Source: Methanocellales archaeon
Lineage (GTDB): Archaea > Halobacteriota > UBA148 > JAUWXC01
NCBI GenBank assembly: GCA_030018435.1
Contig: JASEEY010000001.1
Coordinates: forward strand, 11,038 to 75,037
Direction of reading: 5' to 3'
DNA: 64,000 nucleotides
Shown: piece by piece, positions 3,926 through 41,971 of the stretch
Layout: every line of letters starts with the position of its first letter
How positions within the stretch are numbered: position 1 is the first letter of the stretch
The notes under the pieces: model-generated
The model's database searches: none
What the model was told of the DNA's origin: nothing
The model's input: only the letters and a program-made list of their open reading frames with translations
Translations under genes and position numbers: made by a program

Positions 3926-4645
3926 ATGGCAGAGCAAGTAGTAGAAAGATGGAACAAACCAATGATGGCCATGCACTGGATTCACATGGTCACATGCCTG
4001 ATACTGATCATCACCGGCTTCCGCATCTACCTAGGATGGGGGCTCCCCTCTGCCTATTCACAGGCAAGGGCATTGCACATGGTTGCAGTGGTAGGATTTC
4101 TAATAGCAAACCTCATACTCCTTCCATACGGCATGGTCCTGGAGGCCCTGGAGGGTATCAAACACTACGGTATTAAGCAGGGCATCAAACACTTCATGAA
4201 AGCGAACCTGTTCGGTATGGAAGATGCGCGCAGGCTCAAAGCCATTTTACTCAACTTCTTTGGAAAGCAAAAGGGGTATCCAGCGCTCACGATATACGAT
4301 GAAAAGGCAGGGCTTTATGCGAACAGGAGCCATCCAGTGACGAAAATCCTCATACCACTGGAGGGGATTTTCATCCTGCTCATAACCCTGTCTGGAATCG
4401 TCTTGTATAACATCAACTGGACAATTGTGGGACTCAACATAGGTGCTTTCCTGAGAAGCATTGCGACGGTGACGTTCTGGAGAACGTTGCATCTCGGCTC
4501 GATGTACTACTTCATCTTAGACCTGTTCATACACGTTGGCATATTACAGGCAGATACAAAGCTCAAGCATGCATGGAAAGCGATGTTTCTTACGGGCAAA
4601 GAAGACATAAAAACATCAGGGTACGCCAAAATTGTAAAGAAATAA
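3926..4645 (+). CDS. vhtC: hydrogenase cytochrome b membrane anchor subunit (Vht/Vho C-like)
   Basis: Polytopic membrane protein directly downstream of the large subunit. ATG at 3926 is preceded by GGTGGT, which favours it over the longer track start at 3848 that overlaps vhtA. His residues sit in the transmembrane helices. Confidence 0.7.
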   Translation: MAEQVVERWNKPMMAMHWIHMVTCLILIITGFRIYLGWGLPSAYSQARALHMVAVVGFLIANLILLPYGMVLEALEGIKHYGIKQGIKHFMKANLFGMEDARRLKAILLNFFGKQKGYPALTIYDEKAGLYANRSHPVTKILIPLEGIFILLITLSGIVLYNINWTIVGLNIGAFLRSIATVTFWRTLHLGSMYYFILDLFIHVGILQADTKLKHAWKAMFLTGKEDIKTSGYAKIVKK

Positions 4646-4680
4646 AGGGGAAAATTCTCCCCTTTCTTTTTATTTTTAAT
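4646..4680. terminator. bidirectional terminator between convergent vhtC and echF: GGGGA-AAATTC-TCCCC hairpin followed by a T-rich run
   Basis: Seen directly: aggggaaaattctcccctttctttttatttttaat. A T-rich tract after a hairpin is the typical archaeal termination signal. Confidence 0.6.
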
Positions 4681-4991
4681 TAATTCGTACTCCCTGCCTC
4701 TTGTTTCCTAATCAAGACCCCAAATCTACAAGCACCGATGCACAGATTGCACCGTATGCACCTGCCCACGTTTATCACTGGTATCAGCTTCTCATCTATA
4801 TGTGAGAGCGTAATCGCTCCTGGTACTGGGCAGACCGTCACGCACGCCTTACATTCTGTACATTCTCCTACCACAACCGGAAAATCCCTAAATCTCGGTG
4901 GGGTTGGCACTGGTTTCGTTTTTGCGAACAGGAATTTCTTAATCCATTCCGATCGTGCGAATTCGTGTAGATACCATATGAGTGAAGACAT
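4680..4991 (-). CDS. echF: 2x[4Fe-4S] ferredoxin subunit of Ech-type hydrogenase (EchF-like)
   Basis: CTECKACVTVCP and CIRCNLCIGACRFG are two CxxCxxCxxxCP ferredoxin motifs. It is the last gene of the ech-like operon. Confidence 0.75.
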   Translation of the reverse strand: MSSLIWYLHEFARSEWIKKFLFAKTKPVPTPPRFRDFPVVVGECTECKACVTVCPVPGAITLSHIDEKLIPVINVGRCIRCNLCIGACRFGVLIRKQEAGSTN

Positions 4992-4994
4992 GAA

Positions 4995-6089
4995 TCATCC
5001 CTCTGTGCACGCTATACATGGGTCGATGCTGGCGTAAATCGCCACGGCATCGGCTATTGACGGAGACCCTGCAAGCATATACCTAGCACAAGTTTCTAGG
5101 TTTAGTCTGGTGGGAGTTCTAATCGTGATGTCATCGATTTTTCCAGCACTGTCTGTCTTTACGAAGTATTTGAGCTCGCCTCTGGGTGCCTCACCACTGT
5201 GGAAACCCTCACCAGCCTTCACCCTGCCCTTATTTTGGATATTTCCTTTTGGCAGGTTATCTATGGCATCTCTGATGAGGTTCATGGACTGGAAGATCTC
5301 GTCAAATCTTACCAGGACTCTTGCTGTATTGTCTCCCTCTTTTCTTGAGATTGCCTTGAAGTCGAAGATATCTCTATATGTGGGATGTCTGAGTCTCCAG
5401 TCGGATTCTGGGTGACCCGAGCCCCTGGCAACAGGACCCACTGCGGGAACTTTTACCGCATCCTCATAGGAAAGAACGCCGATGCCCCTTGACCTGAGCT
5501 GCAGCAGCGGCCCATGTTCGAACATCCCCATATATCTCCTTATTCTCGGCTCCATCCTGTCAAGCATCTCCAATATCGTTTTCAAATGATGATCTTCAAT
5601 GTCCCATCTCACGCCGCCAAGGACGTTCCAGGACATGTGTACTCTGTTGCCGCTTACCATCTCCAATAAATCCATCGAATTCTCCCTAACGTCAAGCGTG
5701 TACATCGCAAGCGTTTCGTGCTCGATCCCGAGGAAATAAGACACGTTTGCTATGAGGTGGCTCTGTATCCTATCCAGCTCGTTAACGATGACGCGCAGAT
5801 ATTTTGCCCTGGGCGTCGGCTCGACATCGGAAATCTTCTCAAGGGTCTCTATGAACGTCATGCAATGGATATTGGAACATATGCCGCAGACTCTTTCTGC
5901 GAGATAGACGGCTTTGTTCCAGGGTTTGCCTTTTAGGATTCTCTCTATCCCCCTATGCATATATCCCAGTTCCACCTCAGCATCGACCACTCTCTCGCCC
6001 ACTGTGTGCAATTTAATCCTCAACGGCTCTTTTAGCGCTGGATGTAGAGGACCGATTGGTATGGATACGTCAACATTTTTTTCAATCAC
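4995..6089 (-). CDS. echE: group 4 [NiFe] hydrogenase large subunit (EchE/HycE/NuoD-like)
   Basis: 364 aa. N-terminal RVCGICSNIH and C-terminal DPCIACTEG Ni-binding Cys pairs. There is no C-terminal extension. Confidence 0.85.
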   Translation of the reverse strand: MIEKNVDVSIPIGPLHPALKEPLRIKLHTVGERVVDAEVELGYMHRGIERILKGKPWNKAVYLAERVCGICSNIHCMTFIETLEKISDVEPTPRAKYLRVIVNELDRIQSHLIANVSYFLGIEHETLAMYTLDVRENSMDLLEMVSGNRVHMSWNVLGGVRWDIEDHHLKTILEMLDRMEPRIRRYMGMFEHGPLLQLRSRGIGVLSYEDAVKVPAVGPVARGSGHPESDWRLRHPTYRDIFDFKAISRKEGDNTARVLVRFDEIFQSMNLIRDAIDNLPKGNIQNKGRVKAGEGFHSGEAPRGELKYFVKTDSAGKIDDITIRTPTRLNLETCARYMLAGSPSIADAVAIYASIDPCIACTEG

Positions 6090-6547
6090 TTGTTTGCCTC
6101 CTTTTTGTCATAGTCCTTGAATACGATAGGTGCCACTCCCAGAATTGCATCCAGGATTTCACTCGGCCTGGGCGGACATCCCGGTACCTCGGCAGCCACG
6201 GGTATGAAGTTTTTAATGGGAGGATAAACCCGCTTACCCTCCTGGTCGAATATACCTCCCGAGCACGCGCACGATCCAACGGCGACGACCACTTTCGGCT
6301 CTGGAATTTTATCATAAAGCTCCTTCAGCTTCGTCTTCCACTGCTCGGTAACGCAACCGGTTATTATCAGGATATCTGCTTCTCTTGGATTCGGGTGGTG
6401 TACGAAGATGCCATATTGCTCTATATCATATCTCGGACAAATGGTTGCAAGAACCTCGATGCTACAGCCATTACAACTACCAGCATCGGCGTAAGTCACG
6501 TGGAACGATTTGCGGCGTACGAAATTTTTGAGCTTATCGAAGATCAT
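6086..6547 (-). CDS. echC: group 4 hydrogenase small subunit (EchC/NuoB-like, proximal 4Fe-4S)
   Basis: 153 aa. CNGCSIE...ITGCVT...GSCACSGG Cys pattern of NuoB/HycG-like subunits. 4-nt overlaps with neighbours on both sides. Confidence 0.85.
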   Translation of the reverse strand: MIFDKLKNFVRRKSFHVTYADAGSCNGCSIEVLATICPRYDIEQYGIFVHHPNPREADILIITGCVTEQWKTKLKELYDKIPEPKVVVAVGSCACSGGIFDQEGKRVYPPIKNFIPVAAEVPGCPPRPSEILDAILGVAPIVFKDYDKKEANK

Positions 6548-12811: not shown

Positions 12812-15004
<2,193 letters not shown>

Positions 15005-15811: not shown

Positions 15812-16120
15812 CTATGTCTTGATGCTCTCTCGTTTGCTCAGCGTTGCCTGAATCTCGTCCAGCAACTCGTCCTCGGTCTTACCCTCGGTGGCAATGCCAA
15901 GCTCCTCTGCCATCTTTATTACCTTGCCTTTCTTCGCTCCCTTTGGTGCAGCTTCTAGGGATCGTTCAAACTCGCTCAATTCTTTCTCAGCTTCTCTCTG
16001 CGCCTTCTTGAACTCACCCATGGATTTGCCTACCGAGCGAGCCAGCTCTGGCAACTTCGACGCTCCAAAGAGGAGGATGATGATTACGCCTATGATCATT
16101 ATCTCATTTGGACCGATCAT
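15812..16120 (-). CDS. tatA: Tat translocase TatA/E-family protein
   Basis: N-terminal TM helix MIGPNEIMIIGVIIILLFGASKLPE followed by an amphipathic helix and an acidic tail. Confidence 0.85.
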   Translation of the reverse strand: MIGPNEIMIIGVIIILLFGASKLPELARSVGKSMGEFKKAQREAEKELSEFERSLEAAPKGAKKGKVIKMAEELGIATEGKTEDELLDEIQATLSKRESIKT

Positions 16121-16157
16121 TGATTTTCCACCTCATTCCAATATCTTGTCAACAATA

Positions 16158-16466
16158 TTAAACGTTCTGTTCCTCGGCTCGCTTCCTCAACTCTTTTTGA
16201 ATCTCATCCAGCAGTTCATCGTCAGTCTTGCCCTCGGTTTTGATTTTCAACTCCTCGGCCACCCTCTTTATCCTATCAACTTCCCCTTTTTCGGCCGCCC
16301 TCTTGGAGTACTGGAACTCGCTTAACTCGTACTCCGCTTCTTTCTGCGCCTTCTTGAACTCACCCATCGCCTTACCCATCGCCCTTGCCATCTCTGGTAG
16401 TTTATCTGTACCGAACAGCAGCAGTATTATTACAAATATCAGCAGTGTCTCCGTTGGTCCTATCAT
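16158..16466 (-). CDS. tatA: Tat translocase TatA/E-family protein (tandem paralog)
   Basis: MIGPTETLLIFVIILLLFGTDKLPEMARAMGKAMGEFKKAQKE has the same architecture as 15812-16120. Confidence 0.85.
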   Translation of the reverse strand: MIGPTETLLIFVIILLLFGTDKLPEMARAMGKAMGEFKKAQKEAEYELSEFQYSKRAAEKGEVDRIKRVAEELKIKTEGKTDDELLDEIQKELRKRAEEQNV

Positions 16467-16585
16467 CGAAACTACTCTTTCTGTTCAACTTTGACTTAAG
16501 GATTTTGGATATAAAAGGGCAAAGCGATGGAATGTATTACCGCATCGCTAAAACACGTAGGATAGATGCGCCTAAATCAAAGCGC

Positions 16586-16726
16586 CTATACGCCAATTCT
16601 AAATACCTTGGTGCCGCATCTGGGGCAAGTTCCCTTTGTCGCTCTCCTCTTGTTTTTCATGGTTACTTGCTGCGGATTCTGCATCGTCACTTTCTTCTTA
16701 CACTTCACACAATAGGCCTCTACCAT
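16586..16726 (-). CDS. 46-aa zinc-ribbon protein (CxxC...CPxCG), below the ORF-track cutoff
   Basis: Own translation: MVEAYCVKCKKKVTMQNPQQVTMKNKRRATKGTCPRCGTKVFRIG. AGGAGGT lies 5 nt upstream of the ATG and an A/T-rich box sits further upstream. Confidence 0.6.
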   Translation of the reverse strand: MVEAYCVKCKKKVTMQNPQQVTMKNKRRATKGTCPRCGTKVFRIGV

Positions 16727-16782
16727 TGTATACCTCCTTTTTTATTTTTAGAATGATGCCACCCATTAAAAACATTTCTCAA

Positions 16783-17103
16783 TCACTTAACTATCTCTGG
16801 AACGAATTTTGAGGCCCTGTACATTTGCACGCCCCTTCCGGCTACCCAAGAGGCACAATAACCCATAACGTATAAAAAGCCCACTTTGATCATCGCGCTA
16901 ATCACTCCGCCAAAAAGGTCTTGCGGGTCGGATTCAATAATGGACCCTGGAGACATGATCGAGGAGTATGCTATGTAGAACACCGTGCAGAGCAGGACGA
17001 TCCCAAATAAGAATACTGCAATGCCTAGAAACTTGCCGTGCACATCAATCTCAATTTTTTGCTTGACCGTCTTGGGTTTAGCCTTATCAACGCTCTCTTT
17101 CAT
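16783..17103 (-). CDS. hypothetical membrane protein (106 aa)
   Basis: The internal start MKESVDK avoids overlap with the upstream PurM-like gene. Two hydrophobic helices. Confidence 0.4.
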   Translation of the reverse strand: MKESVDKAKPKTVKQKIEIDVHGKFLGIAVFLFGIVLLCTVFYIAYSSIMSPGSIIESDPQDLFGGVISAMIKVGFLYVMGYCASWVAGRGVQMYRASKFVPEIVK

Positions 17104-17113
17104 ACTACCCCCG

Positions 17114-18442
17114 TCACTTATTCCGCTCAAGAATAAATTTGATTGCGTCCATCTTCTTTTGCACTGCACTCTCAGCCGCCCTGTCCACCTTGGCGCGCAT
17201 CTCTGAAACGTCGAGACTGGCTGACTCGCCCACGACCTTCTTGATGGGCGTATAGGCGGACTCCCTGAATTTTGGAGTAAGATCGATGCGCTTATCATCC
17301 CTGATAAGCTGGGCTCCTGCGCCTCTTTCGACGCGCCCCACTATGTCAGCTGCGATACCATGCTCTCGCAACAATTGCAGCGCGTGCATCACCACCTCAG
17401 GTGGAGCAATTACTAAAAGCGCATCCAGCGAGACGCCCAAATAATCGACGCTCAACTCGTCCAACATCCCCAGCACAGCGGGATTGACAAGCGAGCGGAG
17501 TTTCTCCTCCTCAAAAACGAGTTTTGCTCCGCTGACTTTTGAGATTTCGGCTGCATCTCCTCTAATCCCGCCGTTGGTAACATCGGTCATTGCGTGTATT
17601 TTTGGAGCAAATCCTGCATCCAACAGCACCAGGCATGCTCTCAAAAATCTCACATTTAGCGTTTCGCGCACGATGTGCGACCGACCAAAGTAGAGGGCTG
17701 TGGTGGAGATGGTACCTCCGCCAGCACCTTCAGTCATCAAAATTAGATCGCCGGGTCGCGCATCTTTGCGGGGCGTCAAATTATCGGCGATGCCAACCGC
17801 GCCGACACAACCAGTCATCCTGTCGCCGATTACCATGTCTCCTCCAATGCGAAGCGTACTTCCCGTGATCAGCGGTACGTTGACTAGTTCTGATACAGCA
17901 GCAGCACCAGCCGTATAATCGAATATCTTGGCAATATCGCCATCATCGGCTAGATGAACATCTGAGAAGAGCGCAACCGGGCGGGCACCCATGACGTAGA
18001 TATCGCGCAGCGCCGCCCTCGTAACATGAAACCCAGCCAAGAAGGGGAAATCGCTTAACCGCGAATGCATTCCGTCGACCGTTACAACTACATATTTTCC
18101 ATTCACGGAGACTACGCCAGAATCGTCCAGCTGACGAGAGTCGATAAATGCTCCAGTATCTCCGATGATCTCAGCGATCTTTTTGTGTGTGTAAAAATCA
18201 CCTTCGCCCCTGGAGCCAACACCAAATTCGCCCATCGTGATACCAGAGGGTGCGAACGAGATCAAATCATCTTCCAGATGAGACGTCGTCTCCACCTCCC
18301 CTAGGATGGCTTTGGCCAAGGCTTGAGCTTCGCTGGGGGATATATCCTTAATCTCAATGATGCGATCTGTCAGTTTTTTAAGAACGGTGTTATAACTTTC
18401 GCCCCTACGCAGAGCCCTTCTAGCATAGCCTTCAAGATCCAT
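17114..18442 (-). CDS. PurM/HypE-superfamily (AIR synthase-related) protein with N-terminal extension
   Basis: 442 aa. PurM-like N and C domains (DDSGVV, GDMVIGD-like regions). The specific family is not resolved. Confidence 0.6.
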   Translation of the reverse strand: MDLEGYARRALRRGESYNTVLKKLTDRIIEIKDISPSEAQALAKAILGEVETTSHLEDDLISFAPSGITMGEFGVGSRGEGDFYTHKKIAEIIGDTGAFIDSRQLDDSGVVSVNGKYVVVTVDGMHSRLSDFPFLAGFHVTRAALRDIYVMGARPVALFSDVHLADDGDIAKIFDYTAGAAAVSELVNVPLITGSTLRIGGDMVIGDRMTGCVGAVGIADNLTPRKDARPGDLILMTEGAGGGTISTTALYFGRSHIVRETLNVRFLRACLVLLDAGFAPKIHAMTDVTNGGIRGDAAEISKVSGAKLVFEEEKLRSLVNPAVLGMLDELSVDYLGVSLDALLVIAPPEVVMHALQLLREHGIAADIVGRVERGAGAQLIRDDKRIDLTPKFRESAYTPIKKVVGESASLDVSEMRAKVDRAAESAVQKKMDAIKFILERNK

Positions 18443-18453
18443 CTTTTCCTCAA

Positions 18454-18528
18454 TGCTCCGGTGGGGATTTGAACCCCAGTCTTGGGAGTGAGAGTCCCAA
18501 ATGATTGGCCGAGCTACACTACCGGAGC
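18454..18528 (-). tRNA. tRNA-Glu(CUC), no intron
   Basis: Reverse complement: GCUCCGGUAGUGUAGCUCGGCCAAUCAUUUGGGACUCUCACUCCCAAGACUGGGGUUCAAAUCCCCACCGGAGC. Anticodon stem UGGGA/UCCCA, loop CUCUCAC. Confidence 0.8.
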
Positions 18529-41841: not shown

Positions 41842-41971
41842 AGCCTCGGGAGGGATTTGAACCCTCGACCTAGTGATATCTTGCAACCGTCCTACCGAAG
41901 GTGGACAAACGATCAACCCTTTTGAGAGTTGCTACAAGTCACTCGCTCTAGCCAGACTGAGCCACCGAGGC
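41842..41971 (-). tRNA. tRNA-Thr(UGU) with 55-nt intron (41878-41932) at 37/38
   Basis: Reverse complement, 5' exon: GCCUCGGUGGCUCAGUCUGGCUAGAGCGAGUGACUUGUA. 3' exon: AUCACUAGGUCGAGGGUUCAAAUCCCUCCCGAGGC-U. Anticodon stem AGUGA/UCACU. Confidence 0.75.

Follow-up and report, generated by a model that had tools for sequence, protein, structure and literature searches.

The 64,000-nucleotide stretch of archaeal DNA analysed here (referred to as the window) contains, on its minus strand, a gene of 46 codons whose product belongs to the DUF5679 family (Pfam PF18930) and carries the four cysteines of a zinc ribbon. That this gene is real, belongs to DUF5679, is held under purifying selection and stands alone is practically beyond doubt; it is a fresh member of a known, uncharacterised family and not a novel type of gene. 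The broader explanation, towards which we lean by a small measure, is that this Cys4 zinc-ribbon gene specifies a protein that would bind nucleic acid, most probably DNA, without sequence specificity and would serve an architectural or DNA-topology role. The features of the gene are as follows.

16586..16726, minus strand: coding sequence of the DUF5679 zinc ribbon, ATG to TAG, 46 codons, from the ORF list and the sequence
16700..16711, minus strand: first zinc knuckle, CVKC (Cys6, Cys9), from the translation, between predicted strands 1 and 2
16616..16627, minus strand: second zinc knuckle, CPRC (Cys34, Cys37), followed by Gly38-Thr39, from the translation, between predicted strands 4 and 5

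16385-16756, plus strand: 123-aa ORF of the mechanical ORF list, overlapping the zinc-ribbon gene

The minus-strand product of 16586-16726 is 46 aa long (MVEAYCVKCKKKVTMQNPQQVTMKNKRRATKGTCPRCGTKVFRIGV; an earlier reading made from the sequence alone had printed it without its last valine), with a mass of 5.2 kDa, a pI of 10.3 and 12 lysines and arginines against a single acidic residue (Asp+Glu). PF18930 matches it at 61.9 bits (cutoff 27, E = 6.1e-17), residues 5-44 aligning with model positions 1-40 of 40. Among the matches listed, the closest relative is a 91% identical protein encoded at the same locus position in a Methanosarcinales MAG (CP061209.1). The two genes differ at 20 codons, 15 of them synonymously and 5 non-synonymously, and the 23 base changes are distributed 2/4/17 over codon positions 1/2/3, a third-position bias that points to purifying selection on the minus-strand frame. 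In a public Logan contig the identical 46-aa protein has been called as a gene, with PF18930 attached and the gene order unchanged.

The full-length PF18930 match and the pattern of third-position substitutions bear out the proposal of the sequence-only reading that a small Cys4 zinc-ribbon gene is encoded here. Its description of the gene as unannotated holds with respect to the ORF track, from which the gene is absent owing to a 60-aa length cutoff; public pipelines do call it, and its relatives are labelled "DUF5679 domain-containing protein". The contrary reading, that the 46-aa frame arose by chance or that the real gene is the plus-strand ORF, has in its favour that the first is short and the second longer, and is already refuted, with hardly any probability left to it. 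The E-value of 6e-17 and the thousands of homologues speak against it, as does a substitution pattern that suits the minus-strand frame, and the plus-strand ORF extends across the intergenic region next to tatA as well. The part of CP061209.1 that matches this ORF has stops in all three frames, so the ORF is an antisense shadow, and its earlier dismissal as spurious was correct. For the window itself the result is routine: a real gene below the 60-aa cutoff was passed over and a spurious antisense ORF listed in its place, an annotation worth fixing.

Several sequence elements flank the gene and are candidates for its expression signals.

16732..16738, minus strand: Shine-Dalgarno sequence AGGAGGT, separated from the ATG by the 5-nt spacer ATACA
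16739-16750, minus strand: A-rich run TAAAAATAAAAA, adjoining the Shine-Dalgarno sequence
16765-16772 (-46 to -39), minus strand: putative TATA-like box TTTTTAAT, assigned from the sequence
16773-16780, minus strand: putative BRE-like purine-rich element GAGAAATG, directly before the TATA-like box, likewise assigned
16545..16585, minus strand: 3' flank with T-runs (TTTGATTT; TTTT at 16550-16553), a possible archaeal oligo-T terminator, likewise assigned

The Shine-Dalgarno sequence had been described as a textbook one, and AGGAGGT does lie 5 nt before the ATG; the heptamer by itself is not over-represented in the window (10 copies observed against 5.9 +/- 2.6 expected), and it is by its position, not its frequency, that it counts as a Shine-Dalgarno sequence. 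Its GGAGG is kept in CP061209.1, and similar motifs occur at the equivalent position in many archaeal homologues. Within the window, 19 of the 76 ORFs of at least 150 aa have a Shine-Dalgarno-like 5-mer no more than 20 nt upstream of the first start codon. The A/T-rich element next to it, previously taken for part of the promoter, is too near the ATG for a TATA box, and the A-rich run at 16739-16750 probably holds the transcription start instead.

The block GAAATGTTTTTAATGGG is identical in CP061209.1 despite the different gene upstream: there the end of the AIRS gene is 75 nt away, whereas in the window a 106-aa membrane ORF intervenes. The tatA gene has TTTTATAT at a nearly equal distance from its own ATG, and of the 22 archaeal homologues inspected most have a TATA-like box 25-45 nt upstream, often together with a Shine-Dalgarno sequence and downstream T-runs. 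On the 3' side, TGTTTTAGCG is conserved in CP061209.1, and a consensus scan flagged a weak hairpin with a T-run at 16594-16581; the bacterial-type promoter and terminator scan gave counts at chance level, its consensus being inapplicable to an archaeon. In most homologue loci the gaps to neighbouring genes are 50-250 nt. From these gaps, the conserved BRE/TATA-like block and the TATA-like boxes and T-runs at archaeal homologues, we infer that the zinc-ribbon gene forms a small monocistronic unit, one that would be transcribed independently and translated from its Shine-Dalgarno sequence.

The family is large and widely distributed. When 5.8 billion proteins were searched by word index, 601 homologues were recovered at E <= 1e-3; the best 120 are 67-91% identical to the window protein and almost all 45-49 aa long. 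Among 1.84 billion cluster representatives (50% identity), searched exhaustively with HMMER, 4,910 matched at E <= 1e-3, of which 1,856 reached E <= 1e-10. Relatives are encoded in more than 583 stretches of the one-genome-per-species data, and the best 80 of these are 62-80% identical to the window protein. Among these 80, the bacterial carriers are Dehalococcoidia and other Chloroflexota, Solirubrobacterales/Thermoleophilia (Actinomycetota), Patescibacteria and Saganbacteria, and the archaeal carriers are Aenigmatarchaeota, Undinarchaeota, Micrarchaeota and Altiarchaeales (DPANN among them), Thermoplasmata and Nitrosopumilaceae (Thaumarchaeota). Counted from the expected Met to the stop, 79 of the 80 genome loci encode 46-50 aa, and 41 of 55 viral loci encode 45-50 aa. 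A stand-alone architecture of about 45-50 aa is typical of DUF5679, and the window gene, at 46 aa, conforms to it.

Sequence conservation centres on the zinc site. C6, C34, P35 and C37 are invariant, C9 is present in at least 90% of 43 aligned homologues, and G38 and T39 are nearly invariant. Taken over 86 loci, the columns with at least 90% conservation give.YC.K...K...........KN...A..G.CP.CG...F.IG, and the DUF5679 signature residues (Y5, K8, K12, K24-N25, A29, G32, P35, G38, F42 and I44-G45) are all found in the window protein. In length, in its four cysteines, in signature and in architecture it is a plain member of PF18930, with no difference from it. Over a 42-residue core of the 86-locus set, mean identity is 71% between archaea, 69% between bacteria and 68% across the two domains, means that draw on the 80 loci most similar to the query and hence on a sample biased towards it. 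This lack of separation at the domain level implies that the sequence is very strongly constrained, has been exchanged horizontally, or both; one copy from Thermoplasmata and one from Dehalococcoidia are 93% identical (L012 against L015), a pair whose sequences suggest inter-domain transfer. In the literature no experiment on any DUF5679 member was found, the name appearing in three papers and there only as an incidental domain label, and a paper on the Methanosarcina mazei small proteome contains nothing on DUF5679.

The AlphaFold2 model, built from the 43-sequence alignment (mean pLDDT 88), has five strands (residues 3-6, 11-14, 16-22, 28-33 and 40-44), and its CxxC knuckles sit in the turns of the 1-2 and 4-5 hairpins, which describes a zinc ribbon with an inserted hairpin. 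On the strength of this model, zinc binding and the predicted fold are very probable: Cys6/Cys9 and Cys34/Cys37 would together hold one zinc, locking the five short β-strands into a compact SH3-like mini-barrel. Comparison with solved structures by sequence, with the single sequence and with a profile, gave no significant relative in the PDB, ribosome entries included, and Foldseek with the AlphaFold2 model gave no significant match, the top one being LysW (3vpb_E, E = 0.58). The sole resemblance to a PDB sequence covers 16 residues at the second knuckle of the archaeal ribosomal protein aS34 (profile E = 0.046), and eL42/L44e and Rpp21 are among the weak fold matches.

Many small proteins carry generic zinc ribbons of similar length, among them RpoP/RPC12, Rpp21/RPR2, YacG, HypA and LysW, names which here come from automatic annotation or weak fold matches. 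The scores against the relevant models are low: RpoP/RPC12 reaches 13.9 bits (NF001608, cutoff 84) and HypA 16.9 bits (cutoff 28.9), and the S27ae, Nop10 and rubrerythrin-like models lie far below their cutoffs. RpoP and Rpp21 are archaeal and eukaryotic, whereas for this family Chloroflexota, Actinomycetota and Patescibacteria have close homologues in abundance. In LysW the carrier function depends on an acidic C-terminal tail whose last residue, a Glu, takes up the substrate; the window protein ends in FRIGV, has one acidic residue and a pI of 10.3, and the LysW reading is rejected for want of the acidic tail. Nor is there significant sequence similarity to aS34, eL42/L44e or any other protein of the solved ribosomes.

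The haloarchaeal micro-proteins with C(P)XCG motifs, many of which were missed by early annotation (PMC6562870, PMC11241148, PMC10716476, PMC2253796), invite closer comparison. HVO_2753, HVO_0758 and Brz are, like the window protein, archaeal, shorter than 70 aa and furnished with two Cys pairs, but their families are haloarchaeal, whereas DUF5679 spans both domains. The second motif of the window protein, CPRCG, fits the C(P)XCG pattern; the first, CVKCK, lacks both Pro and Gly. The sequence-only reading had recommended a comparison with archaeal small zinc-finger families and had raised a regulatory role, and this comparison places the protein well outside them, at 14.7 bits for HVO_2753 (NF041909, cutoff 80) and 15 for Brz (NF041795, cutoff 100).

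A sequence-specific transcription regulator, akin to Brz or the haloarchaeal C(P)XCG micro-proteins, is accordingly improbable as a description of this protein, despite its being a small one-domain zinc finger with precedents in that class: transcription of bop is regulated by Brz (PMC2253796), and phenotypes are known for several zinc-finger micro-proteins of Haloferax (PMC6562870, PMC10716476). Some of the viral fold neighbours also carry repressor labels. Against such a role stand the Brz and HVO_2753 scores, far under threshold, and the fact that archaeal and bacterial copies, at about 68% identity, are as alike as copies within each domain, which is unusual for a specific regulator, as is the lack of a conserved neighbouring target gene. 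A monomer of 46 aa would moreover offer little surface for base-specific recognition.

The comparison extends to two DNA-associated proteins. Cren7 (PDB 4r55, 3kxt, 6a2i), a crenarchaeal chromatin protein that is abundant in the cell and that binds and kinks double-stranded DNA, lacks a zinc site and is restricted to Crenarchaeota/TACK, unlike DUF5679, which occurs in bacteria, archaea and viruses; its structure-based identity to the window protein is 14%, the fold match lies below the usual levels of significance, and the Cren7 Pfam model is not among the best 25 of the 36 Pfam families matched at E <= 1. Zn_ribbon_Top1 (PF01396) comprises Cys4 zinc ribbons on TopA, an enzyme that is also fused to DUF5679 in Anaerolineae, and it too is not matched among the best 25 of those 36 families. 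On TopA the two domains occupy opposite ends, DUF5679 being N-terminal, and the window protein is free-standing. The C-terminal zinc ribbons of topoisomerase I bind single-stranded DNA. By scores or by defining features that it lacks, the window protein is set apart from Brz/HVO_2753, RpoP, LysW, Cren7 and Zn_ribbon_Top1; its mode of action may nonetheless resemble that of Cren7 or of a topoisomerase zinc ribbon.

The role we favour is non-sequence-specific binding of nucleic acid, with DNA the most probable ligand, in which the conserved lysines K8, K12, K24 and K31 and the aromatics Y5 and F42 would make the contacts. The protein would thus act as a small architectural or DNA-topology accessory, comparable to Cren7 or the zinc ribbons of topoisomerase I. 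The reading draws on the charge of the protein, its Cren7-like model, the TopA fusions, the AT-hook-like and Lys-rich linkers of multi-copy members, and the presence of the domain in DNA viruses and elements devoid of translation genes. DNA binding as such, which follows from fusions, charge and fold, we put slightly short of an even chance; that Cren7 has neither zinc nor sequence similarity to the window protein weakens it.

The fusions tell more than the gene neighbourhoods do. For one fusion query, all 120 of the matches listed (90%-identity clusters) consist of an N-terminal DUF5679 joined to Toprim or to Toprim and Topoisom_bac. These proteins are the topoisomerase I of Anaerolineae and have one or two DUF5679 copies with Lys/Ala/Pro-rich linkers. 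One fused topA, on a 2.75-Mb contig (L084), lies just after dprA with a single gene between, and has Zn_ribbon_Top1 at its C-terminal end. Multi-copy DUF5679 proteins have Lys/Ala-rich linkers and RGRP (AT-hook-like) motifs. In two long proteins, P0121 (1406 aa) and P0127 (932 aa), 3-7 DUF5679 repeats precede an FGE-sulfatase (SUMF1-like) domain at the C-terminus, and a fusion of DUF5679 with PNP_UDP_1 also occurs; these architectures were seen among the best 120-150 matches of each large search and are not to be read as frequencies.

As side observations on the fused topoisomerases, all 120 of the Anaerolineae TopA fusions listed (P0270-P0387) are at most 479 aa long, those on megabase contigs included, and in L084 the topA frame (4001-6303) is split into overlapping ORFs at 4001-5371 and 5332-6303. 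The split is probably a frameshift in a long-read assembly, the alternative being a genuinely split TopA.

The same fusions admit a different explanation. The FGE-sulfatase architecture is not explained by simple DNA binding; neither it, with its 3-7 repeats, nor the PNP_UDP_1 fusion is suggestive of DNA, and the TopA fusion may itself mean contact with protein or with RNA polymerase, all of which weakens the DNA reading. DUF5679 could instead be a protein-protein adaptor, a zinc-ribbon tag that docks on RNA polymerase, topoisomerase, CDC48 or another conserved machine and not on nucleic acid. The E. coli topoisomerase I zinc ribbons also contact RNA polymerase, which would suit such a tag, as would the diversity of the fused enzymes (TopA, FGE-sulfatase, PNP_UDP_1) and the presence of a CDC48 gene no more than 2 kb away at four loci (the window, CP061209.1 and two from Aenigmatarchaeota). 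A partner common to bacteria, archaea and eukaryotic DNA viruses is hard to name, though, and the extreme positive charge, with one acidic residue, indicates a polyanion as target; with CDC48 proximity limited to those four loci, an adaptor is quite improbable.

In the window (12818-15004, plus strand), in CP061209.1 (L001 8190-10376) and in the two Aenigmatarchaeota loci (L081; L141 5520-7141), no more than 1-2 kb separates DUF5679 from a gene for a CDC48-type AAA ATPase. This proximity may be coincidence, archaea having several CDC48 paralogues.

Genomic context provides the main rival to the DNA reading. No conserved operon partner was found among 82 loci, the most frequent neighbour cluster reaching 11 of them and each cluster being confined to a single lineage; neighbouring ORFs were taken by a longest-ORF rule, which yields antisense artefacts in high-GC genomes (e.g. 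neighbour clusters 1, 7, 20 and 21). Translation genes adjoin the gene in several lineages, which weakens the DNA reading. In Dehalococcoidia, DUF5679 closes an infB-rbfA-truB cluster, with TruB directly upstream in 7 loci and RbfA in 5. In 5 loci of Nitrosopumilaceae it precedes aIF2-beta by 58-70 nt, both genes being on one strand; in this lineage DUF424 comes after aIF2-beta. In one Aenigmatarchaeota genome a tandem DUF5679 pair (L020 4752-4880 and 5001-5135) immediately precedes aIF5B. PheS/PheT, GatB and LeuRS adjoin DUF5679 in other loci. The tandem paralogues of L020 are 44% identical to each other's query match.

These neighbourhoods suggest a ribosome- or translation-linked small zinc ribbon, whether as an RNA binder, an accessory ribosomal protein or a partner of initiation factors. 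The faint resemblance to the second knuckle of aS34 and the weak fold matches to eL42/L44e and Rpp21 point the same way, and strong cross-domain conservation would suit an rRNA target. The neighbourhoods are lineage-specific, however, no neighbour family occurring in more than 11 of the 82 loci, and translation genes are frequent housekeeping neighbours in any case. Solved structures, those of ribosomes included, contain no sequence relative of DUF5679, the recurrent fusion partner is a DNA topoisomerase, and the domain is found in polinton- and virophage-like elements and in poxviruses, all of which are without translation machinery. On these grounds a translation-linked function is unlikely.

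Other contexts favour the link to DNA. In another Aenigmatarchaeota genome (L141 3156-3641) DUF5679 is divergent from an archaeal histone gene, 96 nt apart, and in one Thermoplasmata genome a KaiC-like ATPase and an XPD helicase follow it; both arrangements support the link. In Limnocylindria the gene is flanked by a PNP/UDP phosphorylase on one side and by a ROK kinase or GAPDH on the other.

The domain also extends to viruses and mobile elements. Stand-alone DUF5679 homologues are carried by 55 IMG/VR contigs, several of which are giant-virus MAGs, and entomopoxvirus proteins have a fold in common with DUF5679. The domain has been reported in coral polintoviruses and mavirus-like elements. 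A phage origin is rejected: tblastn of 50,697 phage records gave no match, and PHROGs yielded only matches at E >= 0.002, to families without assigned function.

With these carriers in mind, a tentative and rather doubtful extension of the DNA reading is that DUF5679 could be a near-universal, zinc-stabilised "mini-Cren7" of 5 kDa, held in common and repeatedly exchanged by archaea (DPANN, Thermoplasmata, Thaumarchaeota, Methanosarcinales), bacteria (Chloroflexota, Actinomycetota, Patescibacteria) and large DNA viruses, and serving as the N-terminal DNA clamp of Anaerolineae topoisomerase I. Were this true, the family would be among the very few nucleoid-associated families that both prokaryotic domains share with viruses of eukaryotes; should the protein more simply be a DNA-binding architectural one, it would be a cross-domain addition to the short list of prokaryotic chromatin proteins. 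Either way the family is of greater interest than the find in the window, combining about 68% identity between archaea and bacteria at a length of 46 aa with a spread over thousands of lineages, occurrence in giant viruses and fusion to TopA in one bacterial class.

In the lineage of the window the gene has a conserved position, for which the following neighbours are relevant.

15812-16120 and 16158-16466, minus strand: two tandem TatA/E paralogues of 102 aa each, directly downstream of the zinc-ribbon gene
16783-17103, minus strand: ORF of 106 aa, a predicted two-helix membrane protein, between the AIRS/PurM-like gene and the zinc-ribbon gene

The gene order in CP061209.1 is thioredoxin, AIRS-type enzyme, DUF5679, tatA, tatA, hsp20 and CDC48, and the tatA duplication is conserved both there and in the Logan contig. 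The placement of the gene between tatA and a PurM-like gene, which the sequence-only reading had singled out as a point to check in relatives, is therefore conserved in CP061209.1 and in the contig with the identical protein, but is confined to this lineage, and the implied direct adjacency to the PurM-like gene gives way to the intervening ORF at 16783-17103. A functional tie to Tat export or to the AIRS/PurM-like enzyme is rejected, because these neighbours occur only in the window, CP061209.1 and the Logan contig and in 0 of about 100 other loci.

The intervening 106-aa ORF has two strongly hydrophobic segments at approximately residues 24-50 and 63-81 and an ATG 10 nt past the AIRS stop, and has no Pfam match. 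The Logan contig includes it among its called genes, and at the corresponding position of CP061209.1 it is missing (an indel of about 312 nt); a gene of 106 aa that lies between tatA and hsp20 in CP061209.1 is unrelated to it. Rfam reports no RNA element within 16000-17200 and two tRNAs elsewhere in the window. The first of these (18454-18528, minus strand) is located 12 nt upstream of the AIRS/PurM-like gene, and the second (41842-41971, minus strand) spans 130 nt and presumably contains an intron, as is common in archaea.
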